Source of the DNA: Escherichia phage vB_EcoM_Skers
DNA: 64,000 nt
Strand: one strand, 5' to 3'
Sequence record: MW748999.1
The notes beneath the pieces were generated by a model. The model did no database searches. It saw only the letters and a list, made by a program, of their open reading frames with translations, and was not told the origin of the DNA. A program made the position numbers and the translations under genes. Below, piece after piece: positions 325-60,948 of this stretch (position 1 is the first letter of the stretch; every line of letters starts with the position of its first letter).

Positions 325-1350
325 ATATGTATCAGCTAATTTAATTATGTTATCAAGTTCCGTGATTGGTAAAGTTTCTGTGTATCCATCTTTCAACATG
401 GATTTATCAACAACGCCACAATGATAAGTTCTCTTTATTTCCTTTTCAAGTTCCCACGGAATCCTGCCATCAACACTTTGTTTGACGTAAACAAGTTTGT
501 GAACAAACTTAGATTTCTGCATATGTTGTTTCATTCTGGTTTCCGGTAATTCATTGGTTACACCAAACTTTATAAATTTATCATCTAACGTCTGGATATA
601 AAAATATCCCATCTCAGATGGACGATAGCCAGAAGAACTACATTTCGGACACCCTTTAGCATTTCTATTGAACGTACAATATCTTACAGAAAATTCTGCG
701 TCATGTTTTGTACATTTAAGTTTTATCCATGAATTTGCAGTACCTATCCATTCACCATCGACACCTATATATTCATACCCTAACTTTTTACATTTATCTT
801 CTATTCTAGATAGTGCATCTTCCACGGGAACGACATATTCCGTCTTAAATTGTTCAGCCGCACATTTCTTACAACCACATGTACCATGATTTTTAAAATC
901 AAAGAACTTTGTATTCTTCCAAATATGGTCATGTTTCTTGCATCTAAGAATCATCTTAGTAACTTGTGATTTCCAGCCACCAACAAATCCCAAAAATTCA
1001 TAATCAAGATCTTTACATTTTTCTTCAATGAATTTGGTTGCTTCCTCTTCTGTCATAACTCCCCTACATTGAGGGCAACCAACAATAACCTTTTTAGCAT
1101 AGAAACTATTACTGGAAACATCATAGACAGTTCCATGCTTATTGCATTGGATAACAGATCTAGTCAATTTTCCTTTCCATTCTCCAGAAAATCCTAAGAA
1201 TGTATGGTCGACAAGTTTACACCTTTCAATAACTTTATCCGCAAATTCTCTAGGAGATTTTGTTACCTTGTTTACTCTGTATTCTATTTTTTCCGGTTGA
1301 CGAAGATAATAAACGTGGGGATTGCTCCCCACGGAATTAATATTAAGCAT
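322..1350 (-). CDS. putative nuclease with three Cys/His zinc-ribbon repeats and C-terminal GIY-YIG/T5orf172-like domain (homing-endonuclease-like)
   Basis: ORF track 322..1452; probable start at internal Met (MLNINSV) overlapping stop of upstream gene; three repeats of FLGF-G-W...C-K-H...GCP-x-C; C-terminal GYFYIQ...KFGVTN...R...H pattern typical of GIY-YIG-like domains. Confidence 0.55.
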   Translation of the reverse strand: MLNINSVGSNPHVYYLRQPEKIEYRVNKVTKSPREFADKVIERCKLVDHTFLGFSGEWKGKLTRSVIQCNKHGTVYDVSSNSFYAKKVIVGCPQCRGVMTEEEATKFIEEKCKDLDYEFLGFVGGWKSQVTKMILRCKKHDHIWKNTKFFDFKNHGTCGCKKCAAEQFKTEYVVPVEDALSRIEDKCKKLGYEYIGVDGEWIGTANSWIKLKCTKHDAEFSVRYCTFNRNAKGCPKCSSSGYRPSEMGYFYIQTLDDKFIKFGVTNELPETRMKQHMQKSKFVHKLVYVKQSVDGRIPWELEKEIKRTYHCGVVDKSMLKDGYTETLPITELDNIIKLADTY

Positions 1351-2164
1351 CCTTCCACACCTTCCTTGCATCATAGTTTTTACCTTTAGAAACAAATTTA
1401 TATGTGTTAAGGTAGATAATATTGCTCCAGTCTTTCGGGCTAATCTCAACAAGTTTTGTTTTAATGTGTCCCGGTAGATATGCTTTGATCATGTGATCAC
1501 TTCCACGCATACCTTTTACATCGCTCCATTTGATTTTTAAGCGTGTTTTATTGCTCAAGGTAGGAGTAGATGCATATTGCTTTAAAAGTGCTTCCAGAAA
1601 CTGCTGACGGGCTTTAGGTGTTACATAGTGTAAGTTAAGACCCAGCATTACAGTATTACCCGCCTTTGTCTTAGAATCACCCAGACAAATGATCAGCGGG
1701 AAAACATCCCAATATGGCAAAGTGTCTTTATACTTCGCATCATACATAAAGGTATAGATTCGCCCTACTTGCGGTTTTACAATCTGGTGTCCCTTTATTC
1801 CCGCTTTTATTGTTTTAGTAAACCACTCCTGTGATTTTTCTTTAGGACGACTCTTTGATACAGCACGCATAGACGCACGAAAATCATTAATCATCATCAT
1901 TGCGCGTTGCTGCTTATTGAGACCCTTTGCACCTTTCCCTTTTAGTTTTTCAACTTCTAATGCTGTTTTAATTTCGCTGGCATAACGAGACATACTTTTA
2001 GTGAAAGTCGCATAGGCTATTCCCTTAGAATCTGCAAATGCTTTAGCTGTCATGCCTTTGGCTTTTGCTTTCGCAAATTCTACACCCAATTCGACCCACT
2101 GTTTAGACTTTCTTTTTTGGGGAGACGGCTTTTCGTCTTCTGTGATTATTTCAAATACGCTCAT
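1343..2164 (-). CDS. 2: gp2-like DNA end protector protein (assignment by size and position)
   Basis: 273 aa, basic; sits next to gp4-like and divergent from gene 53 as in T4; no direct motif check possible. Confidence 0.5.
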   Translation of the reverse strand: MSVFEIITEDEKPSPQKRKSKQWVELGVEFAKAKAKGMTAKAFADSKGIAYATFTKSMSRYASEIKTALEVEKLKGKGAKGLNKQQRAMMMINDFRASMRAVSKSRPKEKSQEWFTKTIKAGIKGHQIVKPQVGRIYTFMYDAKYKDTLPYWDVFPLIICLGDSKTKAGNTVMLGLNLHYVTPKARQQFLEALLKQYASTPTLSNKTRLKIKWSDVKGMRGSDHMIKAYLPGHIKTKLVEISPKDWSNIIYLNTYKFVSKGKNYDARKVWKDA

Positions 2165-13085: not shown

Positions 13086-15226
<2,141 letters not shown>

Positions 15227-15256: not shown

Positions 15257-17254
15257 ATGACTCTATTATCACCGGGTTTCGAAACGAAAGAAACTACTCT
15301 CTCCACTACCATTGTGCAATCTGCGACTGGTCGCGCGGCGCTGGTAGGTAAATTTCAATGGGGTCCAGCTTTCCAGATTGTTCAAGTAACTAATGAAGTT
15401 GAATTAGTTAATAAATTTGGTCAGCCGGATAATAACACCGCAGACTATTTCATGAGCGGGGCTAACTTCCTCCAGTATGGCAATGACCTGCGTGTTGTTC
15501 GTGTACTCAATAAAGAAAAAGCAAAAAACGCAACTGCCCTAGCTGGTAACGTAGAATTTAGTATTACCAACGAAGGTTCTAACTACAAAGTAGGCGATTC
15601 AATTAAAGTAAAATACAACCGTCAGGAAGTTGAAACCGCTGGCAAAGTAACCAAAGTAGATACAGAGGGTAAAATTAAAGGTATTTTCATCCCAACCGGG
15701 AAAATCATTGCTCTGGCTAAATCCGTTGGCGTTTATCCTAATCTTGGGAATTTCACTGTAGAAATCACTTCCGGTACTGGTAACTCAAATGCGGCAATTA
15801 CCATTTCTAAAATTGTTACTGATTCTGGTCTTCTCTTAACGGATCTGGAAACTTCCCGCGCCAATATCACCAATCAAGAATTTTTGACTAAGCTCAAAAA
15901 GTATGATATGCCAGCGGTAAGTGCAATCTATGCTGGTGAGATCGGCAACTCTCTGGAAGTTGAAATTCTGGCACGTAGCGCGTTCAGTGGCGCGGCAGCA
16001 CCTGAATTAACTAGGTATCCGTTCGGTGGAACTCGTGCCGCAGCACGCAACCTAATTCCATATGCACCGCAGAATGATAATCAATATGCGTTTATTGTTC
16101 GTCGAGATGGTGTTGTGGTAGAATCCTATGTACTGTCTACTCTGAAAGGGGATAAAGACGTATACGGTAATTCTATCTATATGGACGACTTCTTTGCTCG
16201 TGGTTCTAGCCAGTACATCTATGCAACCGCTCAGGGTTGGGTAAACGGTTTCAGTGGTATCATCTCTTTGGTTGGTGGTGTGTCTGCTAACGAAGCAACT
16301 TCTGGTGTTGGTGCTGATCCGTTCATTGGTGCGATGATGCAAGGTTGGGATCTGTTTGCTGAACGAGAATCTATTCACGTAAACCTGTTGATTGCTGGTG
16401 CATGTGCTGGCGAAGGTGATGCATTCTCTACTGTACAGAAACATGCTGTTTCCATCGGTGACGAGCGTCAGGATTGCTTAGTGATGGTTTCTCCTCCGCG
16501 TAGCACTGTTGTTAATATTCCGGTCACTACCGCAATCGATAATCTGATCGCATGGCGAGAAGGAAATAGCAATTATTCAGACAACAACATGAACATTAAT
16601 ACCACTTACGCGGTTATTGATGGTAACTACAAGTATCAGTATGACAAATACAACGATGTAAACCGTTGGGTTCCGTTGGCTGCTGATATTGCTGGCTTAT
16701 GTGCTCGAACTGATGTGGTATCTCAACCGTGGATGAGTCCGGCAGGTTATAACCGTGGTCAGATCATGAACGTGGTTAAACTGGCAATTGAGCCTCGCAA
16801 GGCGCACCGCGATCGTCTGTATCAGGCCGCAATTAACCCGGTAATCGGTGCTGGTGGTGAAGGGTTTATCCTAATGGGTGATAAAACCGCTACGACTGTT
16901 CCTAGCCCGTTTGACCGCATTAACGTTCGTCGTCTGTTTAACATGCTGAAAAAGAATATCGGCGATTCAAGCAAATACAAACTGTTTGAAAACAACGATA
17001 ACTTTACTCGCGCTTCCTTCCGTATGGAGGTTTCGCAATATCTCAGCACGATTCGCTCTCTGGGTGGCATTTATGACTTCCGAGTACAATGCGACACCAC
17101 GAACAACACGCCGGATGTAATTGATCGTAACGAATTTGTTGCTAGTATGTTCATCAAACCAGCAAAATCGATCAACTATATCATGCTCAATTTCACTGCT
17201 GTTGCAACTGGTGCTGATTTTGACGAAATTATCGGTCCAGCTAACCAGGCATAA
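15257..17254 (+). CDS. 18: gp18 tail sheath protein
   Basis: 665 aa (T4 gp18 659 aa); follows terminase and precedes tail tube. Confidence 0.9.
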   Translation: MTLLSPGFETKETTLSTTIVQSATGRAALVGKFQWGPAFQIVQVTNEVELVNKFGQPDNNTADYFMSGANFLQYGNDLRVVRVLNKEKAKNATALAGNVEFSITNEGSNYKVGDSIKVKYNRQEVETAGKVTKVDTEGKIKGIFIPTGKIIALAKSVGVYPNLGNFTVEITSGTGNSNAAITISKIVTDSGLLLTDLETSRANITNQEFLTKLKKYDMPAVSAIYAGEIGNSLEVEILARSAFSGAAAPELTRYPFGGTRAAARNLIPYAPQNDNQYAFIVRRDGVVVESYVLSTLKGDKDVYGNSIYMDDFFARGSSQYIYATAQGWVNGFSGIISLVGGVSANEATSGVGADPFIGAMMQGWDLFAERESIHVNLLIAGACAGEGDAFSTVQKHAVSIGDERQDCLVMVSPPRSTVVNIPVTTAIDNLIAWREGNSNYSDNNMNINTTYAVIDGNYKYQYDKYNDVNRWVPLAADIAGLCARTDVVSQPWMSPAGYNRGQIMNVVKLAIEPRKAHRDRLYQAAINPVIGAGGEGFILMGDKTATTVPSPFDRINVRRLFNMLKKNIGDSSKYKLFENNDNFTRASFRMEVSQYLSTIRSLGGIYDFRVQCDTTNNTPDVIDRNEFVASMFIKPAKSINYIMLNFTAVATGADFDEIIGPANQA

Positions 17255-17287: not shown

Positions 17288-17310
17288 AGCGGGGATTTTC
17301 TCCCCGCTCT
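17288..17310 (+). terminator. GC-rich hairpin (GCGGGGA-TTTTC-TCCCCGC) after gene 18, terminator/attenuator-like
   Basis: 7-bp GC stem read directly; weak T-tract, so probably partial terminator or RNA-stability element. Confidence 0.45.
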
Positions 17311-17327
17311 ATTAAGGAATATCAATT

Positions 17328-17822
17328 ATGGCACTCGATTTGAATGATATTACACGCGGTTTCGAGTCTGGCGATTTTGCTCGTCCTAACCTGTTTGAAG
17401 TTGAGATCCCGTATCTGGGGCAAAACTTTAAGCTGATGTGTAAGGCTGCGACTGTCCCGGCTGCTACCGTAGAAAAAATTGCTGTAGGCTATCAAAACCG
17501 TAAAATTAACATCGCTGGCGACCGTGTATACGACGACTGGACCATCACTGTATTCAACGATGACGCACACAAGATCCGTGATGCTATCGTTGCATGGAGC
17601 GATCAGACACATGGCACAGGTTCGGCGATCACTGGTGCAACTCCTGCACAATATAAGAAACAAGCTATTGTTCGTCAACTTAACCGTAACACCGAATCAA
17701 CTAGCGAAAAAACATTGTACGGTATTTTCCCGACCAACGTTGGTGAAGTAACCCTCGATTGGGAACAAAACAACGAAGTTGAAACGTTTGAAGTTACTTT
17801 TGCTATCGATTGGGTAGAATAA
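17328..17822 (+). CDS. 19: gp19 tail tube protein
   Basis: 164 aa (T4 gp19 163 aa); position between sheath and portal. Confidence 0.9.
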   Translation: MALDLNDITRGFESGDFARPNLFEVEIPYLGQNFKLMCKAATVPAATVEKIAVGYQNRKINIAGDRVYDDWTITVFNDDAHKIRDAIVAWSDQTHGTGSAITGATPAQYKKQAIVRQLNRNTESTSEKTLYGIFPTNVGEVTLDWEQNNEVETFEVTFAIDWVE

Positions 17823-17834
17823 ATATATTATCAT

Positions 17835-17853
17835 GCGGGGAGAAGTTCCCCGC
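17835..17853 (+). terminator. GC-rich hairpin (GCGGGGA-GAAGT-TCCCCGC) after gene 19
   Basis: same stem sequence as the hairpin after gene 18; followed by TTAATTTCTCC. Confidence 0.45.
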
Positions 17854-17880: not shown

Positions 17881-19446
17881 ATGTTTAGTAGATTAAAAAT
17901 GCTTGCGCGTTGGGCTGATTTTGACAACGACAAATACGAAGAACAAATTAAAGATAAAGCAGAGTCTATCGCCGCACCTAAAAACAATGATGGTGCTACG
18001 GAAGTAGAAATTAACGATAATTCACCTGCTAGCTCGTGGAACTCTCTTACCCAGCAATTTTACAGCACCGACCAGAAAATCAGCACAACTAAGCAATTAG
18101 TTAACACATATCGCGGTTTGATGAATAACCATGAAGTCGAAAACGCTGTACAAAATATAGTTAACGATGCGATTGTATTTGAAGAAGGTTATGAAGTTGT
18201 TTCATTAAATCTTGAGGCGACTGGCTTTAGTGAATCTGTAAAAGAGCGCATTCATGAAGAATTTAAAGATCTTTTAAACACTATCCAGTTTGATAGGCGC
18301 GGTCAGGATATGTTCCGTCGCTGGTATGTCGATTCGCGTATTTTCTTCCATAAAATCATCGGCAAAAATCCAAAAGATGGTATCGTAGAATTACGCCAGC
18401 TTGACCCACGAAATCTTGAATATGTTCGCGAGATCATTACAGAAGACACACCGGAAGGTAAAATTTATAAAGCAACGAAAGAATATTTCATTTACACCGT
18501 AGGTAATAGCTCTTATTGCGCAGGTGGTCAAGTATTCTCTCCTAATAGTCGCGTTAAAATCCCGCGTAGTGCTATTACATACGCTCACAGCGGCTTGATG
18601 GATTGCGATGATAAATATATCATTGGTTATTTGCATCGGGCTGTTAAGCCAGCAAACCAGCTTAAACTGTTGGAAGACGCAATGGTCGTTTATCGTATCA
18701 CGCGTGCACCGGAACGCCGAGTGTTCTTTATTGATACCGGAAACATGAACAACCGCAAGGCTGCACAGCACATGAACTCAGTGGCACAGTCTTTTAAAAA
18801 CCGCGTTGTTTATGATGCATCGACTGGTAAACTTAAAAACCAGCAAGCAAATCTATCAATGACAGAGGACTACTGGTTACAGCGTCGAGATGGTAAAGCA
18901 ATCACCGACGTTACTACTTTACCCGGTGCATCCGGTATGAGTGATATCGATGATATTCGCTACTTTAACCGTAAATTGTATGAAGCGTTGCGTGTGCCAT
19001 TGTCACGCAGCAATCTCTCCGATGCTAATATGGTGATCGGTGGTGATGGTTCAGAAATTACTCGCGATGAGTTGGAATTTTCGAAATTCATTAGAACTCT
19101 GCAATCACAGTTTTCGGAAGTATTGCGCGATCCTCTGAAATATAATCTGATTCTCAAAAATGTAATTACGGAAGACGATTGGGATCGTGAAATAAATAAT
19201 ATCAAGGTGGTTTTCCATCGGGACTCTTACTATACAGAAGTTAAAGACGCGGAAATTTTAGAACGTCGAATCGGTCTAATCGAACGTATTACACCTTACA
19301 TTGGTAAATATTTCTCTAACCAGACAGTGATGCGTGACATTCTGAAATATACCGATGACCAGATGGACACCGAGAAGAAACAGATCGAAGAAGAAGCGAA
19401 CGATCCGCGCTTTAAACAAACTCCCGATGAAATAGAGGATTTTTAA
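17881..19446 (+). CDS. 20: gp20 portal vertex protein
   Basis: 521 aa (T4 gp20 524 aa); conserved position. Confidence 0.9.
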   Translation: MFSRLKMLARWADFDNDKYEEQIKDKAESIAAPKNNDGATEVEINDNSPASSWNSLTQQFYSTDQKISTTKQLVNTYRGLMNNHEVENAVQNIVNDAIVFEEGYEVVSLNLEATGFSESVKERIHEEFKDLLNTIQFDRRGQDMFRRWYVDSRIFFHKIIGKNPKDGIVELRQLDPRNLEYVREIITEDTPEGKIYKATKEYFIYTVGNSSYCAGGQVFSPNSRVKIPRSAITYAHSGLMDCDDKYIIGYLHRAVKPANQLKLLEDAMVVYRITRAPERRVFFIDTGNMNNRKAAQHMNSVAQSFKNRVVYDASTGKLKNQQANLSMTEDYWLQRRDGKAITDVTTLPGASGMSDIDDIRYFNRKLYEALRVPLSRSNLSDANMVIGGDGSEITRDELEFSKFIRTLQSQFSEVLRDPLKYNLILKNVITEDDWDREINNIKVVFHRDSYYTEVKDAEILERRIGLIERITPYIGKYFSNQTVMRDILKYTDDQMDTEKKQIEEEANDPRFKQTPDEIEDF

Positions 19447-23285: not shown

Positions 23286-23369
23286 TATAAGCCATTCCTG
23301 AAAACTCCGGTCGGGTGCAATACCCGACTTATCATAAACCTTATGACAGTGTAAAGTGTTAATTCCAAA

Positions 23370-23400
23370 GGGAAGACTCGAAAGGGTCTTCCCTTTTTGC
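23370..23400 (+). terminator. strong rho-independent terminator after gene 23
   Basis: stem GGGAAGAC/GTCTTCCC with 7-nt loop followed by TTTTT; a second weaker hairpin lies about 50 nt upstream. Confidence 0.7.
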
Positions 23401-23945: not shown

Positions 23946-23973
23946 GGAATCCTTCGGATTCCTTTTTCTTTTT
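23946..23973 (+). terminator. rho-independent terminator upstream of gene 24
   Basis: stem GGAATCC/GGATTCC (loop TTCG) followed by TTTTTCTTTTT. Confidence 0.6.
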
Positions 23974-26230: not shown

Positions 26231-26254
26231 AAAAAGCCGTCCCGAAGGACGGCT
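26231..26254 (-). terminator. rho-independent terminator after minus-strand gene 26263..26700
   Basis: minus-strand reading GCCGTCC-TTCG-GGACGGC followed by TTTTTTG. Confidence 0.7.
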
Positions 26255-27375: not shown

Positions 27376-27407
27376 AACAAAAAAGCCACCCCGAAGGATG
27401 GCTGATA
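27376..27407 (-). terminator. rho-independent terminator after hoc
   Basis: minus-strand reading GCCATCC-TTCG-GGGTGGC followed by TTTTTTGTTTTT. Confidence 0.7.
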
Positions 27408-39378: not shown

Positions 39379-39385
39379 TAAGCGA

Positions 39386-39416
39386 AAGGCGGGGATTATC
39401 CCCCGCCTTTTTATTT
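39386..39416 (+). terminator. strong rho-independent terminator after gene 54
   Basis: stem GGCGGGGAT/ATCCCCCGCC followed by TTTTTATTTT. Confidence 0.75.
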
Positions 39417-43128: not shown

Positions 43129-43199
43129 TTGATACTCCTTAGTAGTTCGTTTCGGTATGGGTGTATTATGATATACACCCTCTGTTATGTCAACAACTT
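43129..43199 (-). promoter_or_regulatory. PeSL-like early promoter cassette
   Basis: minus-strand TTGACA - 17 nt - CATAAT; hairpin GGGTGTAT/ATACACCC around -10; leader ends AAGGAGTATCAA-ATG. Confidence 0.6.
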
Positions 43200-43379: not shown

Positions 43380-43447
43380 GTTTGATTCTCCTTTCGTTTC
43401 GGTATGTGTGTATTATAGGGGATCGATGATCCCCTGTCAACAACTTT
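43380..43447 (-). promoter_or_regulatory. PeSL-like early promoter cassette
   Basis: minus-strand TTGACA - GGGGATCATCGATCCCC (palindromic 17-nt spacer) - TATAAT; leader ...GGAGAATCAAAC-ATG. Confidence 0.65.
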
Positions 43448-44300: not shown

Positions 44301-45013
44301 AGATCCTTATTTGCTTCAAATACTGCCTTTGCGAATCCTCGCGGGGTAAGTGACCTTATAGTCTTTGTTTTCGTTCCTTTCCCGCCTAGCTTAGAATGCT
44401 GTTTACTGTACCCTTTATTAATCTGCAAAGGTTTCTTTTCTGGCATTATAAAGCCTTGTCCGGTCCATAAGCAAGTCTTTTTCGGGTACATATCACGGGC
44501 GGCAATATACTCAGGAAACGTAGGATGCTTATCATCTTCCGGCAAATAACCGCCATATTCCCACGGATGGAACATATAATCAGGCTTACGCCACATGCTA
44601 GAGATAACGCTTACAGGATTCTCTATCATGTAGGGAACTCCTAGCCATTCACCCAAATACGCGGTTATTTTGGCTGCCCTTACATCATGAACTTGAATCA
44701 ATGGTCCTTGTTCTCGTTTCTTTCGTTCAAAGTGCGCAGCGCCACTAACAGCTAAATTGGTGCACGGTGGGAATGCAAAGATAATATCCGGTTTCCCCCA
44801 TTCAAGGTCCATTGCTCTTTCCAGCCAGTTCAAATCAATCCAGGTGTTTACATAGGTAATGTTTGGATGTTCAAATCGGGTATTATACTTTTTGTATGTG
44901 CCGTGGTCGGCGTCATCCGCATTAAAGCAGACTACCTTATGACCTGCTTTAGCCCATTCTAGCCCCATTATCCCCGATCCGTCAAAGTTGCAGAATATTA
45001 ATTTTTGTTTCAT
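44297..45013 (-). CDS. truncated DNA C5-cytosine methyltransferase-like protein (238 aa; motifs I, IV, VI only)
   Basis: FCNFDGSG (motif I F-x-G-x-G-like), FPPCTNLAVSGA (motif IV Pro-Cys), MIENP (motif VI ENV-like); no recognisable target-recognition domain or motifs VIII-X. Confidence 0.55.
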   Translation of the reverse strand: MKQKLIFCNFDGSGIMGLEWAKAGHKVVCFNADDADHGTYKKYNTRFEHPNITYVNTWIDLNWLERAMDLEWGKPDIIFAFPPCTNLAVSGAAHFERKKREQGPLIQVHDVRAAKITAYLGEWLGVPYMIENPVSVISSMWRKPDYMFHPWEYGGYLPEDDKHPTFPEYIAARDMYPKKTCLWTGQGFIMPEKKPLQINKGYSKQHSKLGGKGTKTKTIRSLTPRGFAKAVFEANKDL

Positions 45014-45255
45014 ATACGCCCCTTTAATCCAACACAGATTTTAGAAGGTTCTTTGCCGTGCCACATTAAGTAAAGTCCGTTAATGCGGCCTTGTTTTGTA
45101 TATGATTCTTTTCTGATCTTCTTATAGTGTCGTGCTTCCTCAACCGATTGTTTAGAATACCAATCATAAAGGAAGAGGCACAAAGGCCAACCATTAGCGG
45201 CCTTAATGCAGTTATTAAGAAATTCCTTATTGCGTTTAATTAATTTTCTTTTCAC
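45010..45255 (-). CDS. hypothetical basic protein (81 aa)
   Basis: ORF track; start overlaps upstream gene stop. Confidence 0.45.
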   Translation of the reverse strand: MKRKLIKRNKEFLNNCIKAANGWPLCLFLYDWYSKQSVEEARHYKKIRKESYTKQGRINGLYLMWHGKEPSKICVGLKGRI

Positions 45256-45503
45256 GCTGCCCCCATTGGTTTGATAGTAACAGAATCTAAAAGACCTTTG
45301 TTAGCCAGTTCGCGGCAAGTTTTCAGATCCGCAACTTCCCAGCCAGCCGCAATCAGGTTATCAATGAGGCTGTTAGCAACTTCTTCGCTCATGAAAGAGC
45401 ACTGTTTGCCGATGGTGTAGCGTACACGCTGTAATTTCAGTTTACGGAAGCCTTTAACGTTCAGGTCTTTAGCGATTTTCTTTGCGGTTTCGATGTTAGC
45501 CAT
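45252..45503 (-). CDS. hypothetical protein (83 aa), first gene of a five-gene operon
   Basis: ORF track; directly downstream of a PeSL-like promoter cassette. Confidence 0.5.
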   Translation of the reverse strand: MANIETAKKIAKDLNVKGFRKLKLQRVRYTIGKQCSFMSEEVANSLIDNLIAAGWEVADLKTCRELANKGLLDSVTIKPMGAA

Positions 45504-45586
45504 TGTTTGATTCTCCTAAGTGGTATCTCGTCTTGATGGTTGTATTGTAGGGGAGTTATCCTCCCCTGTCAACACTTTTTATAAAA
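45504..45586 (-). promoter_or_regulatory. PeSL-like early promoter cassette
   Basis: minus-strand TTGACA - GGGGAGGATAACTCCCC (palindromic spacer) - TACAAT; leader ...TAGGAGAATCAAACA-ATG. Confidence 0.6.
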
Positions 45587-45754
45587 TCATTTGTTAATTT
45601 CTGGTGCGTTGCTAGGATAGTAACCTTCTTTAACTCCGAGGTATTTCGCAACCATCCCTACAATCTTCTGTGCTACTACAATGTCAAATTTCAGATAATC
45701 TTCGCCGTGGGTTTCAATGATATATGCTTCACATGCTGCTTTCGTCTCGAACAT
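45587..45754 (-). CDS. hypothetical small protein, copy A of duplicated 55-aa gene (MFETKAACEAY...)
   Basis: ORF track 45587..45802, start placed at internal Met directly after the PeSL leader; about 85 percent identical at protein level to hand-translated copy B. Confidence 0.55.
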   Translation of the reverse strand: MFETKAACEAYIIETHGEDYLKFDIVVAQKIVGMVAKYLGVKEGYYPSNAPEINK

Positions 45755-45829
45755 TTTGATTCTCCTATATCTCGTTGGTATGTGTGTAGTATAGGGGATC
45801 ACCGATCCCCGTCAACAACTTTTTTAAAA
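45755..45829 (-). promoter_or_regulatory. PeSL-like early promoter cassette
   Basis: minus-strand TTGACG - GGGATCGGTGATCCCC - TATACT; leader ACACACATACCAACGAGATATAGGAGAATCAAA-ATG. Confidence 0.65.
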
Positions 45830-46111
45830 TTATTCGTGATTAGTTTCGATGTTGTGCATTTTGCACCAGTTCAGCCAATCGCCCAGATCCTGATAGTTGA
45901 TGCTTTTATCTGCTGCCATCGTTTTTGTCTTGATACCCATATGTGCGTTATGAGTAAGCATTTTTACAGTGAACTCGATTTTATCGCCTTTAGCTTTAAC
46001 ATCAACCAGTTTGGTCCACTGGCTACCAGCGCCGCGAATGTTCATACCAACGATGTTTCCGATGTATGCTTCTTTGTTTTTCAGGATTTCGGTTGCTTTG
46101 ATGAATTTCAT
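45830..46111 (-). CDS. hypothetical protein (93 aa)
   Basis: ORF track; PeSL cassette immediately upstream. Confidence 0.5.
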   Translation of the reverse strand: MKFIKATEILKNKEAYIGNIVGMNIRGAGSQWTKLVDVKAKGDKIEFTVKMLTHNAHMGIKTKTMAADKSINYQDLGDWLNWCKMHNIETNHE

Positions 46112-46183
46112 TGTTTGATTCTCCAGTTCGTTTCGGTATGGGTGTATTATGCTATGTTCTTACTTTGGTGTCAACAACTTTTT
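46112..46183 (-). promoter_or_regulatory. PeSL-like early promoter cassette
   Basis: minus-strand TTGACA followed by spacer and CATAAT; leader CACCCATACCGAAACGAACTGGAGAATCAAACA-ATG. Confidence 0.6.
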
Positions 46184-46453
46184 TTAGATATTTTCAGAAA
46201 TAAATTTTAAAACTTGACGTAAATGTTTCTCATCTTTGATAGTCGCCGGAAGTTCTTCTTTTACTTCCTGTGCAAGATAGATATTTCCGTTCCAAGTGAA
46301 AGATCCGTCTTCGTTTACGCGATAGCTGAACATCCACTCGCAATCATTTTCGATTTCATATACACACAGAAGGGTGTAATCGTTAAAGCTATTGATTTCA
46401 AGGTCGAAGCCGTGGCGTTTTGCAAAGTTGGTAGTGGTTTTAGTCAGTGCCAT
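46184..46453 (-). CDS. hypothetical protein (89 aa)
   Basis: ORF track; PeSL cassette immediately upstream. Confidence 0.5.
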   Translation of the reverse strand: MALTKTTTNFAKRHGFDLEINSFNDYTLLCVYEIENDCEWMFSYRVNEDGSFTWNGNIYLAQEVKEELPATIKDEKHLRQVLKFISENI

Positions 46454-46530
46454 TGTTTGATTCTCCTAAGTGGTATCTCGTTTCGATGTGTGTATTATGC
46501 TATAGGCGTGATCTGGTGTCAACAACTTTT
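46454..46530 (-). promoter_or_regulatory. PeSL-like early promoter cassette
   Basis: minus-strand TTGACA - 17 nt - CATAAT; leader ...CGAAACGAGATACCACTTAGGAGAATCAAACA-ATG. Confidence 0.6.
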
Positions 46531-46546
46531 TTAATTTTTTGGAAAT

Positions 46547-46571
46547 AAAAAAAGCCGACACTAAGGTCGGC
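46547..46571 (-). terminator. rho-independent terminator after gene 46580..46891
   Basis: minus-strand GCCGAC-CTTAGT-GTCGGC followed by TTTTTTT. Confidence 0.7.
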
Positions 46572-46579
46572 TAATAAAA

Positions 46580-46891
46580 TCATTTAGACAAATAATCATT
46601 CTGTGCAATCCGGTCAGCATGTTCCGGCGTTACGTCAATTGCAATCACTTTAACGCGCGCTTTCTTGACTGAATTTTCTCGTAGCCAGTGCGTGTGAGCG
46701 TGCACATTTTTATATTTTGATGCTGATGCGGTTTCAAAGGTACGGATCGGACCAGGGTAATCAGCGTAAAGGATCTCTAGGTCATCGGTGATGTAAAAAT
46801 ATACATCATAATTACTGTTCTCTAGTTTAAGCAGAGACTTTCGGAACATTGGGAGATTTTCGCGGGTAAATTCAAAGATATTATCTTTCAT
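46580..46891 (-). CDS. H-x-H-W family small protein, member 1 (103 aa)
   Basis: shares YDVYFYITDDLEI and HAHTHW...VKVIAIDVTPEHAD motifs with five other ORFs in this region. Confidence 0.6.
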   Translation of the reverse strand: MKDNIFEFTRENLPMFRKSLLKLENSNYDVYFYITDDLEILYADYPGPIRTFETASASKYKNVHAHTHWLRENSVKKARVKVIAIDVTPEHADRIAQNDYLSK

Positions 46892-46923
46892 AGTATTATC
46901 CTCAATAGTTGGATGAAAAGGGG

Positions 46924-46946
46924 CGTTAACGCCCCCATATATTAAA
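46924..46946 (-). terminator. hairpin terminator overlapping the stop of gene 46942..47229
   Basis: minus-strand GGGGGCGTTAACGCCCC followed by TTTTCAT. Confidence 0.55.
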
Positions 46947-47229
46947 ACAGTCCTTCCTGTACACCGTAGTAGAGTTCATCGCTGATAATTTCATTAATGC
47001 GACGGTGTGCATATTCCTGATTTGCGAAGTTATCAGCAAGTTCTACTTTAGTTTCGCCGTCATGAGTCCATTTAGTGATAACTTTACCATCTGCAAATTT
47101 GAAGTTGAACTCTTTAGCTACCGCATCGCGTACCAGACGTGCAAACTTATTGTTGCGGATTGCATTGTCGGTTTCGTGTGCAGCGTGAGCGAATTTGTTA
47201 ACTTTCAGGGTGATAGTAATGTATGCCAT
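46942..47229 (-). CDS. hypothetical protein (95 aa)
   Basis: ORF track; PeSL cassette immediately upstream. Confidence 0.5.
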   Translation of the reverse strand: MAYITITLKVNKFAHAAHETDNAIRNNKFARLVRDAVAKEFNFKFADGKVITKWTHDGETKVELADNFANQEYAHRRINEIISDELYYGVQEGLF

Positions 47230-47310
47230 AATTTGATTCTCCTAGTTAGAAAGTGTATCTCGTTTCGATGGGTGTATTATGCTATACACCCGATCTTATG
47301 TCAACACTTT
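47230..47310 (-). promoter_or_regulatory. PeSL-like early promoter cassette
   Basis: minus-strand TTGACA - 17 nt - CATAAT, hairpin GGGTGTATAGCATAATACACCC enclosing the -10; leader ...CTAACTAGGAGAATCAAATT-ATG. Confidence 0.6.
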
Positions 47311-47589
47311 TTATAAAATAATTTTTTGATATTTTTCTATGATGTTCGTGTAAGTCACATCAACCGCTAGCACCGTTGCTTCGAATCCACCGTTTAGCCA
47401 ATGGCTATGATCATGATCGTGAAAGAAACCTAGACCAGTACGAAGACCTTCTTTATATTCTGCGCGTACATTCAGTTTGTCGTCGATAAACAGATAAAAC
47501 CATGAATTTTTACTAGGATTGATGATACAACCTTTCAGATTAGGGAGAATATCACGACTAAGAATAAACTTATCACCTACTTTGAACAT
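47311..47589 (-). CDS. H-x-H-W family small protein, member 2 (92 aa)
   Basis: motifs WFYLFIDDKLNV and HDHDHSHW...ATVLAVDVT. Confidence 0.6.
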   Translation of the reverse strand: MFKVGDKFILSRDILPNLKGCIINPSKNSWFYLFIDDKLNVRAEYKEGLRTGLGFFHDHDHSHWLNGGFEATVLAVDVTYTNIIEKYQKIIL

Positions 47590-47603
47590 AATATTTTCCT
47601 CAC

Positions 47604-47912
47604 TTATAAAGTTTGACCGTTGTTTTTCGCATAATGCTTAATGCGTGCTTGATCTGCTTCCGCTGGTGATAGATTCCATGCAACCACTACAACTTCTGAC
47701 GCATCATGATCATTATCACTTACCCAATGATTATGATTCATACAATTGTTTGCTATCGCGTGAGTAAATGATCTCATTACCGGAGACGTATAATCATAGT
47801 AACGGATTTTCAGATTTTCATCAACGTACAAGTAGATCGTATACGGCTTATATTCAGTAACCAGTAACAGACAGTTACGCAATTCTGGGAAAATCTTTTT
47901 AGTTAATTTCAT
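47604..47912 (-). CDS. H-x-H-W family small protein, member 3 (about 102 aa)
   Basis: ORF track 47604..47993; start placed at internal Met (MKLTKK) just after the upstream stop; motifs YTIYLYVDENLKI and MNHNHW...VVVVAWNLSPAEAD. Confidence 0.55.
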   Translation of the reverse strand: MKLTKKIFPELRNCLLLVTEYKPYTIYLYVDENLKIRYYDYTSPVMRSFTHAIANNCMNHNHWVSDNDHDASEVVVVAWNLSPAEADQARIKHYAKNNGQTL

Positions 47913-47913
47913 T

Positions 47914-48123
47914 TTATAATCCTCGGTCGCGGCTATAGTACACTGTACGCCATACAATTTCATGTTTCGTGTCGCTCCAGCACACGATCTCATTTACTCT
48001 TAAATCTTTGTTATCAACAAAAGATGAACATTGTGACGCTTCTTTCATCATTTTATCTGCTGTTTTCTCATCAAATACAGCACAGATTTCTTTATACACT
48101 CGATAATCTTTAAACTTGCTCAT
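47914..48123 (-). CDS. hypothetical small protein, MSKFKDY paralog 1 (about 69 aa)
   Basis: ORF track 47914..48135 with start at internal Met; N-terminus MSKFKDYRVYKEI...ADKMMKEASQCSSF parallels the adjacent paralog. Confidence 0.5.
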   Translation of the reverse strand: MSKFKDYRVYKEICAVFDEKTADKMMKEASQCSSFVDNKDLRVNEIVCWSDTKHEIVWRTVYYSRDRGL

Positions 48124-48125
48124 AA

Positions 48126-48335
48126 TTAACACCAATCAAGAGTTTTTGAAAACACATCTATCCATTGTTGAGTATATGCGGTTTCTTTCCATGACACAAT
48201 ACCAGTCGAATAATGGTTTTTGTTTCCAGAAAAGGACGGGCATTTTGATGCATCTTCCATCATCTTTTCGGCGAACTCTGGTGCGTATACTCGCAGGATC
48301 TGTTGATATGCTTTATAGTCTTTAAATTTGCTCAT
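48126..48335 (-). CDS. hypothetical small protein, MSKFKDY paralog 2 (69 aa)
   Basis: MSKFKDYKAYQQI...AEKMMEDASKCPSF; tandem with paralog 1. Confidence 0.5.
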   Translation of the reverse strand: MSKFKDYKAYQQILRVYAPEFAEKMMEDASKCPSFSGNKNHYSTGIVSWKETAYTQQWIDVFSKTLDWC

Positions 48336-48600
48336 AATCGTTAACTACCTTATCAGCTTCTTTTATTGTTTTTACATCAACTGCGATAATCCGTAAAGGT
48401 TCGTCGAAGGTCCACCAGTGGTCATGAATATCAGCTTGTGATTTATCACCAAAGGAATCACGAATATCATTTTTACATTTATAGCTAATGTGACCTTCAT
48501 AGTCAACATAAAGGTAATTATCGAAAATCGGCGTTTTTAAGATCATACCGAAAAATCTTTCTTTGTGTGTCTTATCCAGTGTTGCAGTAATTCGCATCAT
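48322..48600 (-). CDS. H-x-H-W family small protein, member 4 (92 aa)
   Basis: motifs NYLYVDYEGHI and HDHWW...RIIAVDVKTIKEAD. Confidence 0.6.
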   Translation of the reverse strand: MMRITATLDKTHKERFFGMILKTPIFDNYLYVDYEGHISYKCKNDIRDSFGDKSQADIHDHWWTFDEPLRIIAVDVKTIKEADKVVNDYEQI

Positions 48601-48612
48601 AATATATTCCTC

Positions 48613-48792
48613 TTAGAAAGGGATGGTCATTTCTTGAGCTTGTACATTCTCGTTAGGATTAAACTTCATCCAACCGATATTGTCTACCAGCATATGCACA
48701 TTTTTATCATATCCTACGTGAGTAGTCAACACTAAATGTGCTTTACCTTCAACGATGATTTCCATGTACTTCTGAACTTCGATAGCTTTCAT
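48613..48792 (-). CDS. hypothetical small protein (about 59 aa)
   Basis: hand-translated (MKAIEVQKYMEIIVEGKAHLVLTTHVGYDKNVHMLVDNIGWMKF...); directly downstream of a PeSL leader; below track cutoff. Confidence 0.4.
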   Translation of the reverse strand: MKAIEVQKYMEIIVEGKAHLVLTTHVGYDKNVHMLVDNIGWMKFNPNENVQAQEMTIPF

Positions 48793-48857
48793 TTTTGATT
48801 CTCCGTTTGTTGTCTTGATGGGAGTATATTACTACTCCCTTTAATCATTGTCAACTA
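48793..48857 (-). promoter_or_regulatory. PeSL-like early promoter cassette
   Basis: minus-strand TTGACA - 17 nt - TAATAT, hairpin GGGAGTAGTAATATACTCCC over -10; leader ...CAAACGGAGAATCAAAA-ATG. Confidence 0.6.
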
Positions 48858-49025
48858 TTATTTGTTAATTTCCGGTGCGTTGCTCGGATAGTAACCTTCT
48901 TTAACACCCAGATATTTCGCAACCATTCCGGTGATCTTCTGTGCTACTACGATATCGAATTTCAGGTAGTCTTCACCGTGGTTTGCTACAATGTATGCTT
49001 CGCATTCTGCTTTAGTCTGGAACAT
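48858..49025 (-). CDS. hypothetical small protein, copy B of duplicated 55-aa gene (MFQTKAECEAY...)
   Basis: hand-translated; protein about 85 percent identical to copy A at 45587..45754; below track cutoff. Confidence 0.5.
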   Translation of the reverse strand: MFQTKAECEAYIVANHGEDYLKFDIVVAQKITGMVAKYLGVKEGYYPSNAPEINK

Positions 49026-49096
49026 TTTTGATTCTCCTATATCTCGTTGGTATGTGTGTAGTATAGGGGATCACCGATCCCCTGTCAACAACTTTT
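49026..49096 (-). promoter_or_regulatory. PeSL-like early promoter cassette (near-identical to the one at 45755..45829)
   Basis: minus-strand TTGACA - GGGGATCGGTGATCCCC - TATACT; leader identical to the cassette upstream of copy A. Confidence 0.65.
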
Positions 49097-49399
49097 TTAT
49101 TCTTCGTCTTTATCTTTATATGCGTATTTCATAAATTTGTCTGCTACTTCATCGGCATGTTCCGATTCTACGTCGGATTCGAGAACAATAGCAAGATCGG
49201 TTTCGTCGTTTCCGTCATACCAATGATTATGGGTATCGTTTTCTTCGATATAGAATGAGTCATTTGGAGTTGGACGACAATATACATCTAAATTCTCATC
49301 GATGTAAAAGATCCAATCTTCGTAAAGAATAACCGTATTAGCCAGATTTTTATTGCCTTCAACGAAAGGTTCAGCTACAAATAGCTTAGTTTGTTCCAT
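49097..49399 (-). CDS. H-x-H-W family small protein, member 5 (about 100 aa)
   Basis: ORF track 49097..49456 with start at internal Met (MEQTKLF); motifs WIFYIDENLDV and THNHW...LAIVLESDVESEHAD. Confidence 0.55.
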   Translation of the reverse strand: MEQTKLFVAEPFVEGNKNLANTVILYEDWIFYIDENLDVYCRPTPNDSFYIEENDTHNHWYDGNDETDLAIVLESDVESEHADEVADKFMKYAYKDKDEE

Positions 49400-49415
49400 A
49401 ATATTTTCCTCAAAA

Positions 49416-49607
49416 TTATACAGCTTCGTAAACTTCCCAATGTTCAGCGCCAGCACGCTTAACGAAAAGGTTTTCTTTGATGTTATTCATAAACGTCTGG
49501 ATGGATTTAATGCGGTTGGAAGGTTTCCAGTCTTCGTTGGAATTGCGTCGATACATCATAACATTACCAGATCGCTTATATTCAGCAACCATTTTAAGAC
49601 CACACAT
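49416..49607 (-). CDS. hypothetical basic protein (63 aa)
   Basis: ORF track; own promoter-like element upstream. Confidence 0.45.
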   Translation of the reverse strand: MCGLKMVAEYKRSGNVMMYRRNSNEDWKPSNRIKSIQTFMNNIKENLFVKRAGAEHWEVYEAV

Positions 49608-49685
49608 AATATTATCCTCAATTTGTGGGAGAGTATTACCCTCCCGATTATTGTTATACTACATTACGCAAAATGGCGTGTCAAT
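49608..49685 (-). promoter_or_regulatory. sigma70-like promoter with 5'-leader stem-loop
   Basis: minus-strand TTGACA - 17 nt - TAGTAT overlapping the 3' end of the upstream gene, then hairpin GGGAG...CTCCC and GAGGATAATATT-ATG. Confidence 0.5.
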
Positions 49686-49966
49686 GCTTCTTTTGCTGTT
49701 CCGCTAAGATTCTCGATCTCTCCTGGCATAACATCAACCGCCAGAACTTCTACAACATCCTCTGATCCTAACCAGTGAGTATGACCTTTGTAGAACTTGA
49801 TATCCCATTTATCGCTATCGCTAGCCCACCACACATCACCGTCGATAAAGTTGATGTAAAGCACACTACGACACATTGAATTAATTACTTTCAATACTGC
49901 GCCTTTCATATCTTCCACGGTATGGTCTTCCATTTTGAAGACCTCACCTACCTGAACTTTTGCCAT
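49664..49966 (-). CDS. H-x-H-W family small protein, member 6 (100 aa)
   Basis: motifs VLYINFIDGDV and GHTHW...VVEVLAVDVMPGE. Confidence 0.55.
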   Translation of the reverse strand: MAKVQVGEVFKMEDHTVEDMKGAVLKVINSMCRSVLYINFIDGDVWWASDSDKWDIKFYKGHTHWLGSEDVVEVLAVDVMPGEIENLSGTAKEALTRHFA

Positions 49967-49983
49967 TTAGTCACCTCTCTTTA

Positions 49984-50163
49984 TTACATAACAATCACGC
50001 CAGCCGTTGAAAGTTGATGTTTCAACTGAGCATTTTCTGCTACTGTCAAATCAATGATTTCTTGTGACGCTGCAATCATATAGCCATTGGTGATATTGTT
50101 TTTCATCAGTTCAATGGTTTCTTCGTTGTAGCGGATTTTAGCGATGATTTCGTTGAAGTTCAT
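49984..50163 (-). CDS. hypothetical small protein (about 59 aa)
   Basis: ORF track 49984..50229 with start at internal Met (MNFNEI) directly after the PeSL leader. Confidence 0.45.
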   Translation of the reverse strand: MNFNEIIAKIRYNEETIELMKNNITNGYMIAASQEIIDLTVAENAQLKHQLSTAGVIVM

Positions 50164-50239
50164 GTTTGATTCTCCTAGTTCGTTTCGGTATGTGTGTAGT
50201 ATAGGGGATCGGTGATCCCCTGTCAACAACTTTTTTGAA
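50164..50239 (-). promoter_or_regulatory. PeSL-like early promoter cassette
   Basis: minus-strand TTGACA - GGGGATCACCGATCCCC - TATACT; leader ACACACATACCGAAACGAACTAGGAGAATCAAAC-ATG. Confidence 0.65.
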
Positions 50240-50716
50240 TTATTTTTCTTGATGCTCGCGCTCGTACTTTTCGAAATAAAATTCTACTGGCTGGTCGTGG
50301 ATTGACAGTAAGCCAAAGCGTTTAGCCGCTCGCAATCCCATATTGCGCTGAATGTACTTCTGGAAGTTCTCGCGTATACACTTACGCCAGTATTCTAAGC
50401 CCATACAGCTTTTATAAAGATTGCATTGCACACATGCCGGATTCATGTTATCAAGTATATCATGCTCCGGTTTATGCATTCCTACAACCTTATACTTCCA
50501 CGATCCATCATCATTACGGGCAATTCGTCCATTTTCATCATAGACTACCTTTGAGCGTCGCAATACTGGTTTGATGTGGTCTGCGTGCCAGCGATCCCCT
50601 AGTTCCTCGCCACAATAGGCACAACGTCCACCATATTTCATTTTCAGGATCTGGCGTTGCTCTTTCTTTGACAATTTTTTAGGTTTAGGGGCTTTCGCCC
50701 CTTCATTATCACACAT
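50240..50716 (-). CDS. HNH endonuclease (free-standing, homing-endonuclease-like)
   Basis: 158 aa; HNH core GRCAYCGEEL...WHADHIKPV...NMNPACVQCN (Cys pair, His-x-Asp-His, Asn, Cys pair); start overlaps DNA ligase stop. Confidence 0.75.
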   Translation of the reverse strand: MCDNEGAKAPKPKKLSKKEQRQILKMKYGGRCAYCGEELGDRWHADHIKPVLRRSKVVYDENGRIARNDDGSWKYKVVGMHKPEHDILDNMNPACVQCNLYKSCMGLEYWRKCIRENFQKYIQRNMGLRAAKRFGLLSIHDQPVEFYFEKYEREHQEK

Positions 50717-52861: not shown

Positions 52862-52893
52862 TAGCCAAAATATAGGCGGGATTATTTCCCGCC
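52862..52893 (-). terminator. rho-independent terminator after gene 31
   Basis: minus-strand GGCGGGAAATAATCCCGCC followed by TATATTTTGG. Confidence 0.6.
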
Positions 52894-55969: not shown

Positions 55970-55997
55970 ACGACAAAAGGCGGGGAACTAGCCCCGC
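55970..55997 (-). terminator. rho-independent terminator after rnlA
   Basis: minus-strand GCGGGG-CTAGTT-CCCCGC followed by CTTTTGTCG. Confidence 0.6.
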
Positions 55998-57589: not shown

Positions 57590-57613
57590 AACAAAGGCGG
57601 GATTTCTCCCGCC
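57590..57613 (-). terminator. rho-independent terminator upstream of denA
   Basis: minus-strand GGCGGGAGAAATCCCGCC followed by TTTGTTGTG. Confidence 0.6.
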
Positions 57614-57620
57614 CACCTTA

Positions 57621-58019: not shown

Positions 58020-58089
58020 CTTGATACTCCTTAGTAAGTTAGTTTCGTTTCGATGGGGGTATATTACTACCCCCGTTTCATGCTGTCAA
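58020..58089 (-). promoter_or_regulatory. PeSL-like early promoter cassette
   Basis: minus-strand TTGACA - 17 nt - TAATAT with hairpin GGGGGTAGTAATATACCCCC over -10; leader ...AACTTACTAAGGAGTATCAAG-ATG. Confidence 0.6.
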
Positions 58090-58308: not shown

Positions 58309-58377
58309 TTTGATTCTCCTTTGTTTCGTTTCGATGGGGGTATATTACTACCCCCGTTATTCAGTGTCAACTACTTT
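58309..58377 (-). promoter_or_regulatory. PeSL-like early promoter cassette
   Basis: minus-strand TTGACA - spacer - TAATAT with hairpin GGGGGTAGTAATATACCCCC; leader ...CGAAACAAAGGAGAATCAAA-ATG. Confidence 0.6.
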
Positions 58378-60880: not shown

Positions 60881-60948
60881 AATAAAATCCTCACTTGTTT
60901 TTGATGGTTGTATTATAGCGGGGATTTCTCCCCGCGTCAACACTTATT
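60881..60948 (-). promoter_or_regulatory. PeSL-like early promoter cassette
   Basis: minus-strand TTGACG - CGGGGAGAAATCCCCGC (palindromic 17-nt spacer) - TATAAT; leader ...AAGTGAGGATTTTATT-ATG; spacer hairpin is nearly the same sequence as the hairpin after gene 18. Confidence 0.65.

Follow-up and report, generated by a model that had tools for sequence, protein, structure and literature searches.

The closest described counterparts of the hairpins considered here are the promoter-early stem-loop (PeSL) cassettes of phages RB49 and phi1 (Arbiol et al. 2010, PMC2839356; Comeau et al. 2014, PMC4122927), of which each genome carries about 50 (PMC2839356). In these cassettes, a stem-loop that is 'frequently polyG followed by polyC' lies between a -35 and a -10 element, and it has been read as a terminator or attenuator of upstream transcription that is nested in the promoter (PMC2839356). 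Both promoter and terminator activity were seen in vivo with lacZ fusions of PeSLs 211/210 and 206/205, and one PeSL stem-loop cut lacZ expression as strongly as rrnB T1 (PMC2839356). Additionally, the crossover of a mini-circle recombination event was mapped inside the loop of a PeSL stem-loop (PMC2839356). Hairpins of late genes, palindromes, and loop inversion are not mentioned in the PeSL papers (PMC2839356, PMC4122927).

The stretch of DNA analysed here (64,000 nt, hereafter the window) belongs to a Krischvirus, that is, an RB49/phi1/JSE-like phage of the T4 type. Between positions 16000 and 19000 it shares 98% identity with Escherichia phage JSE and 97% with RB49 and about 55 other Krischvirus records, and beyond Krischvirus the next relatives align within the gp19 coding sequence only, at approximately 70% identity. 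Gene identities were assigned by mapping onto the JSE annotation, and the features relevant to this analysis are collected in the table. In comparison to JSE, about 11.3 kb are absent from the window (a DNA methyltransferase gene in its 3' part, g9 to g16, and g17 in its 5' part). The junction of this gap, at which there is a 14-nt overlap, produces a chimeric 605-aa ORF at 13405-15222 and is spanned by none of the 63 matching phage records. A genome of this kind could not produce virions; therefore, the window is either that of a deletion mutant, or misassembled, or edited.

Table. Positions of genes, hairpins, and promoter elements in the window. Free energies are in kcal/mol.
Feature	Position	Strand	Details
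Late structural genes		+	g6-g8, gap, g18 onward to g54; JSE annotation mapping
Late promoter motif, upstream of g18	15218..15225	+	TATAAATA; motif search
g18, tail sheath	15257-17254	+	JSE annotation mapping
Hairpin after g18	17288-17308	+	AGCGGGGA-UUUUC-UCCCCGCU; -15.3; 34 nt past g18 stop
g19, tail tube	17328-17822	+	JSE annotation mapping
Hairpin after g19	17835-17853	+	GCGGGGA-GAAGU-UCCCCGC; -14.1; 12 nt past g19 stop
g20	17881-19446	+	JSE annotation mapping
Hairpin after g54	39385..39410	.	AAAGGCGGGG-AUUAUC-CCCCGCCUUU, then UUAUUUU; -20.4; between g54 (+) and a convergent minus-strand gene
Early genes, including a hyperplastic region crowded with small ORFs	from ~39.4 kb on	-	JSE annotation mapping
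Hairpin after gene 31, terminator-like	52875-52893	-	GGCGGGA-AAUAA-UCCCGCC, then UAUAUUUU
Hairpin after rnlA, terminator-like	55980-55997	-	GCGGGG-CUAGUU-CCCCGC, then CUUUUGU
Hairpin past the gene upstream of denA, terminator-like	57595..57614	-	GGGCGGGA-GAAA-UCCCGCCU, then UUGUUGU
PeSL cassette	60881..60948	-	nrdA stop, -35, 17-nt spacer, -10, SD GAGG, small-ORF ATG
PeSL promoter boxes	-35, 60940-60935; -10, 60917-60912	-	TTGACG; TATAAT; scores 11/12
PeSL stem-loop	60918..60935	-	GCGGGGA-GAAA-UCCCCGC; GNRA loop; -17.5 with flanks; z = -4.8

The window has exactly three copies of the stem GCGGGGA-loop-TCCCCGC, two of them past g18 and g19, respectively, and the third within a sigma70 promoter. 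After g54, gene 31, rnlA, and the gene upstream of denA there are close variants of it. The first-pass annotation had pointed out the hairpins after g18, g19, and g54 and the one in the spacer of the promoter cassette, all of which are present, and the related stems that it listed after the other three genes were likewise recovered once the genes had been identified through JSE. Its string for the cassette carried a spurious terminal G, a trivial slip from mixing the two strands. All of the listed hairpins fold stably as RNA, at -12 to -20 kcal/mol and with z-scores of -2.4 to -4.8.

The three copies of GCGGGGA-N2-8-TCCCCGC in the window compare with none in 100 shuffles, but this is too easy a null, because 31 GC-rich perfect hairpins are present (26 of them intergenic) where block shuffles give 2.25, and hairpins as such are thus under selection. 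Comparison among the hairpins themselves is more stringent. The loop-proximal arm CGGGGA is found in three of the 26 intergenic GC-rich hairpins, against expectations of 0.08 under a composition null (p = 6.5e-5) and 0.26 under a position-specific null (p = 2e-3). The matrix of the latter was built from the same intergenic hairpins, and it is conservative and already includes the tendency for the G-rich arm to come first (21 of the 26 hairpins in the window, with five C-first, and 34 of 45 in JSE), a bias that is valid on both strands because the stems are palindromic. Similarly, in the complete JSE genome, assembled from five pieces for the hairpin count, six of 45 intergenic hairpins have the CGGGGA arm, where 0.13 (composition) or 0.50 (position-specific) are expected (p-values of 5e-9 to 1e-5). 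Two of these six belong to PeSLs, and the other four lie after g18, g19, g54, and a g36-like tail-fibre gene. For any 6-mer family of such size in JSE, p is approximately 0.015 under the position-specific null. The proposal of a shared stem would have fallen if random GC hairpins from the genome resembled one another as closely as these stems do; instead, the stems are moderately but genuinely more alike. Since the over-representation persists under the conservative null, constraint alone is an incomplete account of stem identity.

The motif also occurs elsewhere. GCGGGGA-N3-6-TCCCCGC is present in at least 120 other IMG/VR viral contigs, counted regardless of relatedness. Among the matches listed it is single-copy in all but one contig, and the commonest loops among them are GAAA/TTTC and TTGC/GCAA. 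At the gathering threshold, no Rfam family matched anywhere in the window.

On the minus strand, the promoter cassette reads TTGACG-CGGGGAGAAATCCCCGC-TATAAT, and its stem GCGGGGA/TCCCCGC (GCGGGGA-TTTC-TCCCCGC on the plus strand) covers the entire 17-nt spacer and reaches one base into the -35 hexamer, namely its last. Judged by its sequence, this cassette is a PeSL of the published type. It combines strong sigma70-like boxes, whose 17-nt spacing is within the 16-18 nt of the type, with a stable polyG/polyC stem-loop inside the promoter, and it is intergenic, with a stop codon upstream, an SD and the ATG of a small ORF downstream, and flanks like those of other PeSLs. For instance, the flanks (AAGTGTTGAC ... 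AATACAACCATCAA) are homologous to those of PeSL 45572, and the stem-loops of the two differ. The stem-loop itself is identical in JSE, RB49, and Whisky, and approximately 14 other PeSL-type promoters in the window have other stems, e.g., AGGGGATC, AGGGGAG, GGGGGTA, and GGGTGTAT. By analogy with other PeSLs, the hairpin would stop transcripts arriving from nrdA, and the surrounding promoter would restart transcription. The first-pass annotation had seen one stem put to two jobs, as a terminator and as a promoter spacer. This reading does not stand, because the stem-loop of a published PeSL is already a terminator or attenuator nested in a promoter (PMC2839356), and what is seen is one function in two settings.

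No sigma70-like -35/-10 boxes were found around the hairpins after g18, g19, and g54. As DNA, the hairpin after g18 reads AGCGGGGA-TTTTC-TCCCCGCT; its tail CUCUAUUAAGG has no U tract, and a terminator scan of the plus strand gives no flag there. The tail of the hairpin after g19 (UUAAUUUCU) is weakly U-rich and barely passes the same scan. The late promoter motif TATAAATA occurs at 15218 and at no other position until 20805, and a search with this motif found no late promoter between g18 and g21; therefore, g18, g19, g20, g67, g68, and g21 appear to form one late unit that contains both hairpins. From this anatomy, and by analogy with the intra-operon hairpins of other systems, the two are most likely attenuators or partial terminators, or else barriers to 3' exonucleases (3'-end stabilisers), inside the late operon. 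By partly terminating transcription or by blocking 3' exonucleases, they would leave the mRNA of sheath and tube, the two most abundant tail proteins, in excess of the downstream portal and prohead mRNA, a step that we infer.

Intrinsic terminators were recognised as a GC-rich stem-loop with a U tract directly after it (at least 5 U in 8 nt). Such a tract follows the hairpin after g54 and those at 52893, 55997, and 57614; it is borderline for the g19 hairpin and missing from the g18 hairpin (plus strand) and from the PeSL hairpin at 60918-60935, whose tail is UAUAAUAC. The U-tailed hairpins after gene 31, rnlA, and the gene preceding denA are terminator-like, and the g18 hairpin, which has no U tract, is not a canonical terminator on its own strand. 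The g54 hairpin, whose core is GGCGGGG-ATTATC-CCCCGCC at 39387-39406, has an 11-bp stem flanked by an A tract and a U tract, lies where two genes converge, and is predicted to be a canonical bidirectional intrinsic terminator. It occupies the position 'upstream of alt', at which a terminator has been predicted, with conserved position, in five of six T4-like genomes (PMC1524935). The hairpin preceding denA is one G:C pair short of the focal stem and has the same loop as the 60918-60935 PeSL. According to the JSE annotation, the recognition sequence of EndoII (denA) is CCGC; EndoII, restriction, or modification sites in the stem were considered on this basis and set aside, as no pattern spoke for them. 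Searching the literature for terminator or Term-seq data from phage T4 gave nothing relevant.

Hairpins at the same two positions are also found in other genera of the Straboviridae. RB43 has GGGGGCU-GAAA-AGCCCCC after g18 and AGGGGUA-GCAA-UACCCCU after g19; the corresponding hairpins are GGCCUGU-UUCG-GCAGGCC and AUGGGGA-GAAA-UCCCCAU in T4, ACCCCAGG-ACAU-UCUGGGGU and GGGGC-UUCG-GCCCC in JD18, and hairpins with a UUCG and a GUAA loop, respectively, in Aeromonas phage 31. One T4-like contig (L005) has unrelated hairpins at both positions, and another (L006) has a hairpin after g19 only. None of the hairpins at these positions in RB43, T4, Aeromonas phage 31, and JD18 is followed by a U tract. 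The stems in these four phages and in L005 are unrelated to the Krischvirus g18/g19 stem, apart from the GGGGAGAAAUCCCC core that the T4 hairpin after g19 has in common with it. Since position and structure are conserved across genera while the sequence is free, the hairpins at g18 and g19 are likely to be RNA-structural elements.

Within Krischvirus, the g18-g19 and g19-g20 spacers were compared among 16 genomes, including the window and one IMG/VR contig. The stems and the g19 loop GAAGT are invariant in all 16. In the g18-g19 spacer, all five positions of the g18 loop vary, as against two of the approximately 98 other positions. Ten genomes, including RB49, have the g18 loop GAAAA. The window and JSE have TTTTC, the exact reverse complement of this majority form and thus a loop inversion. 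Whisky, MIZ6, and the IMG/VR contig have GAAGT, which equals the g19 loop 546 bp downstream, so that over 20 bp their two hairpins do not differ; UPWr_E1 has TAAAA. The state of the g18 loop is incongruent with the phylogeny of the flanking 2.6 kb, which would be compatible with either recurrent conversion or mosaic recombination. What looks like conversion of the g18 loop could alternatively have arisen by two neighbouring point changes or by phages recombining with each other. All 16 genomes keep g18 to g20 in the same order, and no indel among them ends at the g18 or g19 hairpin. UPWr_E1 has a 273-bp tandem duplication across the g18/g19 junction, for which a hairpin-mediated origin was considered and rejected, as its junctions are in coding sequence.

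Additionally, all 59 GC-rich hairpins of JSE were compared with the window, RB49, LF73P4, and Whisky by BLAST anchoring of their flanks. The comparisons gave 54 identical cases, 27 that were otherwise different, and five flagged as loop inversions. Three of these five, at two sites, are unambiguous: the g18 hairpin (RB49 and LF73P4) and one PeSL (ACC/GGT). The TTA/TAA change at g54 and the GCC/GGC change in a PeSL were discounted, as each is also a single substitution. One PeSL stem has two compensatory pair changes. Overall, the comparison of genomes suggests that the palindromes may take part in templated DNA exchange, which would help the copies to stay alike.

Taken together, the hairpins are probably ordinary intercistronic RNA stem-loops from the G-run-then-C-run repertoire of RB49-like phages, with no sequence-specific factor required. 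The same repertoire would supply the stem-loop half of PeSL cassettes. The near-identity of the stems may then reflect in part the small sequence space of strong 7-bp stems with a G-rich 5' arm and an A-U pair closing a GAAA-like loop, and in part an occasional exchange of sequence between short palindromes through templated events (loop inversion and loop copying). A bolder proposal, which we regard as unlikely, is that the hairpins are primarily DNA-level recombination modules, that is, a dispersed palindrome that spreads and is homogenised by gene conversion and by shuffling of the PeSL kind. The g18 loop has been inverted and copied and a PeSL loop inverted, in three genomes the g18 hairpin matches the g19 hairpin over 20 bp, and the published mini-circle crossovers lie inside a PeSL loop. 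PeSL 60940 has the flanks of PeSL 45572 around another stem-loop, as if this were a swappable sub-module, and the stem family is over-represented even under the position-specific null. However, the copies at g18, g19, g54, and the PeSL have no similarity beyond stem and loop, the order of g18 to g20 never varies, no indel ends at a hairpin, and the junctions of the UPWr_E1 duplication are in coding sequence. Furthermore, numerous other viral contigs (at least 120 in IMG/VR) carry the motif as well, and an RNA function explains the positions, because the hairpins that other genera have there are built from unrelated stems. The extension of this proposal to the late region, where near-identical 19-20 bp repeats bracket g19 and might permit its excision as a mini-circle, is just as doubtful, and so is an actively exchanging palindrome family whose loops are flipped or copied across hundreds of bp to tens of kb. 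If such a family did exist, palindromes would extrude or template-switch during T4-type recombination-dependent replication, PeSL shuffling would extend beyond the hyperplastic early regions to the conserved late structural module, and g19 would be a cassette between 20-bp direct repeats, excisable as a mini-circle.

Pure convergence, in which selection that favours G-first stems of great stability and GNRA-like loops would arrive at the same 7-mer again and again with no copying between sites, is slightly less probable still. It would account for the exact motif in the other IMG/VR contigs (at least 120, with GAAA/TTTC loops commonest among the matches listed), for the GGGGAGAAAUCCCC core in the T4 hairpin AUGGGGA-GAAA-UCCCCAU after g19, and for the strong G-first bias. 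Yet under a null that includes this bias, the expected copies number 0.26 for the window and 0.50 for JSE, where three and six are observed, and in three genomes the g18 loop is exactly the g19 loop while the surrounding 100 nt are almost invariant. Common origin, which the first-pass annotation had proposed, is plausible, either as such or as continued copying, in view of the g18 loop that equals the g19 loop in three genomes and is inverted in the window and JSE. Chance resemblance among a few GC-rich hairpins can hardly be credited: the stems are only 7 bp long and drawn from a biased alphabet, but no match arose in 100 shuffles, and the p-values lie between 6.5e-5 and 2e-3 for the window and between 5e-9 and 1e-5 for JSE. 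Only a little better placed, and very improbable, is the other suggestion of the first-pass annotation, a sequence-specific RNA-binding or processing factor that would co-regulate early and late transcripts, whether RegB acting on GGAG or an unknown phage protein. JSE does encode regB, and in the g19 hairpin, the PeSL, the 57614 hairpin, and the majority form of the g18 hairpin a GGGGAG runs across the border of stem and loop. However, the RegB/S1 site is 11 nt of single-stranded RNA, rich in A and poor in C, with GGAG at its 5' end (GGAGRAYARAA), and structured GGAG sites resist RegB/S1 (PMC1702504), whereas the GGAGs of these hairpins are half buried in stems of -14 to -17 kcal/mol and followed by UCCCC. 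The g18 hairpin of the window and JSE, with its flipped loop, has no GGAG, and neither do the g54 hairpin and the g36-like hairpin of JSE; RegB/GGAG-directed processing was rejected on the single-strand requirement and on the window's g18 hairpin. Any shared factor would also have to contend with the unrelated stems of other genera at the same positions, the flipping of loop orientation between viable phages, the occurrence of the same motif in at least 120 other IMG/VR contigs, and the lack of any Rfam match in the window, and the suggestion finds no support.

The PeSL part of these observations, including the arrangement of the spacer, is already published, and the hairpin family does not reveal a new regulatory system. 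What is new is modest: the late-operon hairpins appear to fall within the PeSL stem repertoire, and their loops appear to invert or convert between strains. Reading the hairpins as ordinary RNA stem-loops ties those of RB49-like late operons to the hairpin repertoire of the published PeSLs and offers a concrete, testable picture in which a single late transcript would still yield sheath and tube mRNA in excess. Near-invariant intergenic DNA has its fastest-changing positions in the loop of the g18 palindrome, which is relevant to the recombination of T4-type genomes. Possible uses include compact terminator parts and strain markers.

In comparison to known systems, the hairpins after g18, g19, and g54 have only the stem-loop in common with PeSLs, from which they differ in having no promoter boxes and in their location in the conserved late module. 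REP elements are hairpins that stabilise mRNA 3' ends in polycistronic operons, and the Krischvirus hairpins resemble both these and intrinsic terminators in placing a GC-rich stem-loop downstream of a stop codon. In contrast to intrinsic terminators, the hairpin after g18 lacks a U tract and the one after g19 has a weak tail, so that the attenuator or stabiliser class fits them better than that of efficient terminators. Minute inversions of hairpin loops between inverted repeats were reportedly described by Kelchner and Wendel in 1996 for chloroplast non-coding DNA, and quasipalindrome template switching has been described in T4 and E. coli. The likeness to minute inversions lies in a loop that is exactly reverse-complemented between perfect arms with its flanks unchanged (GAAAA/TTTTC at g18 and ACC/GGT in a PeSL), although for Krischvirus the mechanism is one read from the comparison of genomes. 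Tuerk et al. are said to have described, in 1988, intercistronic T4 hairpins with C(UUCG)G and GNRA tetraloops, and the hairpins considered here are similar in being short, very stable, and placed just past highly expressed genes. Unlike those, the Krischvirus g18 and g19 hairpins have loops of 5 nt rather than canonical tetraloops, and whereas no such identity is seen in the other genera examined, the stem after g18 in Krischvirus is the same as the stem after g19.

Relative to JSE, the window is without about 11.3 kb. Missing altogether are g9, g10, g11, the tail collar fibre gene, wac, g13, g14, a homing endonuclease gene, g15 and g16; of the DNA methyltransferase gene EpJSE_00146 the 3′ part is absent, and of g17 the 5′ part. 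A chimeric methyltransferase::terminase ORF crosses the junction, which has a 14 nt overlap; no phage record among the 63 that match carries this junction. Either the gap is a deletion, which would be non-viable, or the sequence was misassembled or edited. Separately, a tandem duplication in Escherichia phage UPWr_E1 takes in the g18 3′ end and the hairpin and reaches into g19, of which it includes the first 30 nt. The annotation makes part of the duplicated stretch a second, small ‘tail sheath protein’ CDS; this duplication may be an assembly artefact.

Positions of the features discussed (window coordinates unless marked)
Feature	Position	Strand	Detail
Chimeric ORF	13405-15222		605 aa
Junction of the chimeric ORF	13585-13598
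Hairpins after g23	23310-23396		two, in succession
Late promoter	23415		TATAAATA
C(UUCG)G terminator	23946-23962	+	U tract
C(UUCG)G terminator	26235-26254	minus	U tract
C(UUCG)G terminator	27384-27403	minus	U tract
GATC-stem PeSL	43417-43435		+ strand loop GAT
GATC-stem PeSL	45794-45810		+ strand loop ACC
GATC-stem PeSL	49065-49083		+ strand loop ACC
GATC-stem PeSL	50203-50221		+ strand loop GGT
Second-subclass PeSL	43159-43180	minus
Second-subclass PeSL	47269-47292	minus
Second-subclass PeSL	48826-48854	minus
Second-subclass PeSL	58061-58089	minus
Second-subclass PeSL	58342-58370	minus
Rearranged hyperplastic region	45000-50300
UPWr_E1 (PP418985.1) tandem duplication	L138 (UPWr_E1 locus) 1095-1640		273 bp

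Canonical C(UUCG)G tetraloop terminators, a type first described in T4, are present in the window alongside the G-run/C-run hairpins. Of the two hairpins that follow g23, the major capsid gene, the first is GUCGGGU-GCAAU-ACCCGAC and the second, with a U tract, is AAAGGGAAGAC-UCGAAAGG-GUCUUCCCUUU; the late promoter lies downstream of both. These hairpins occupy the same position as the conserved post-g23 terminator (Nolan et al. 2006, PMC1524935).

The promoter-early stem-loop cassettes (PeSLs) include four with the common stem (A)GGGGATC/GATCCCC(T), which holds two GATC Dam sites. Their ACC and GGT loops are mutual reverse complements, and the opposite loop orientation (ACC versus GGT) is seen at orthologous sites of other strains. 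In a second subclass, the -10 box is overlapped by the stem-loop (GGGTGTAT.../GGGGGTA...), and for one member, two compensatory base-pair changes separate the stem in JSE from that of its RB49 orthologue. The hyperplastic region has several indels and rearranged blocks in comparison to JSE, with PeSL repeats at the boundaries, and this sequence arrangement is consistent with the published PeSL-mediated shuffling.
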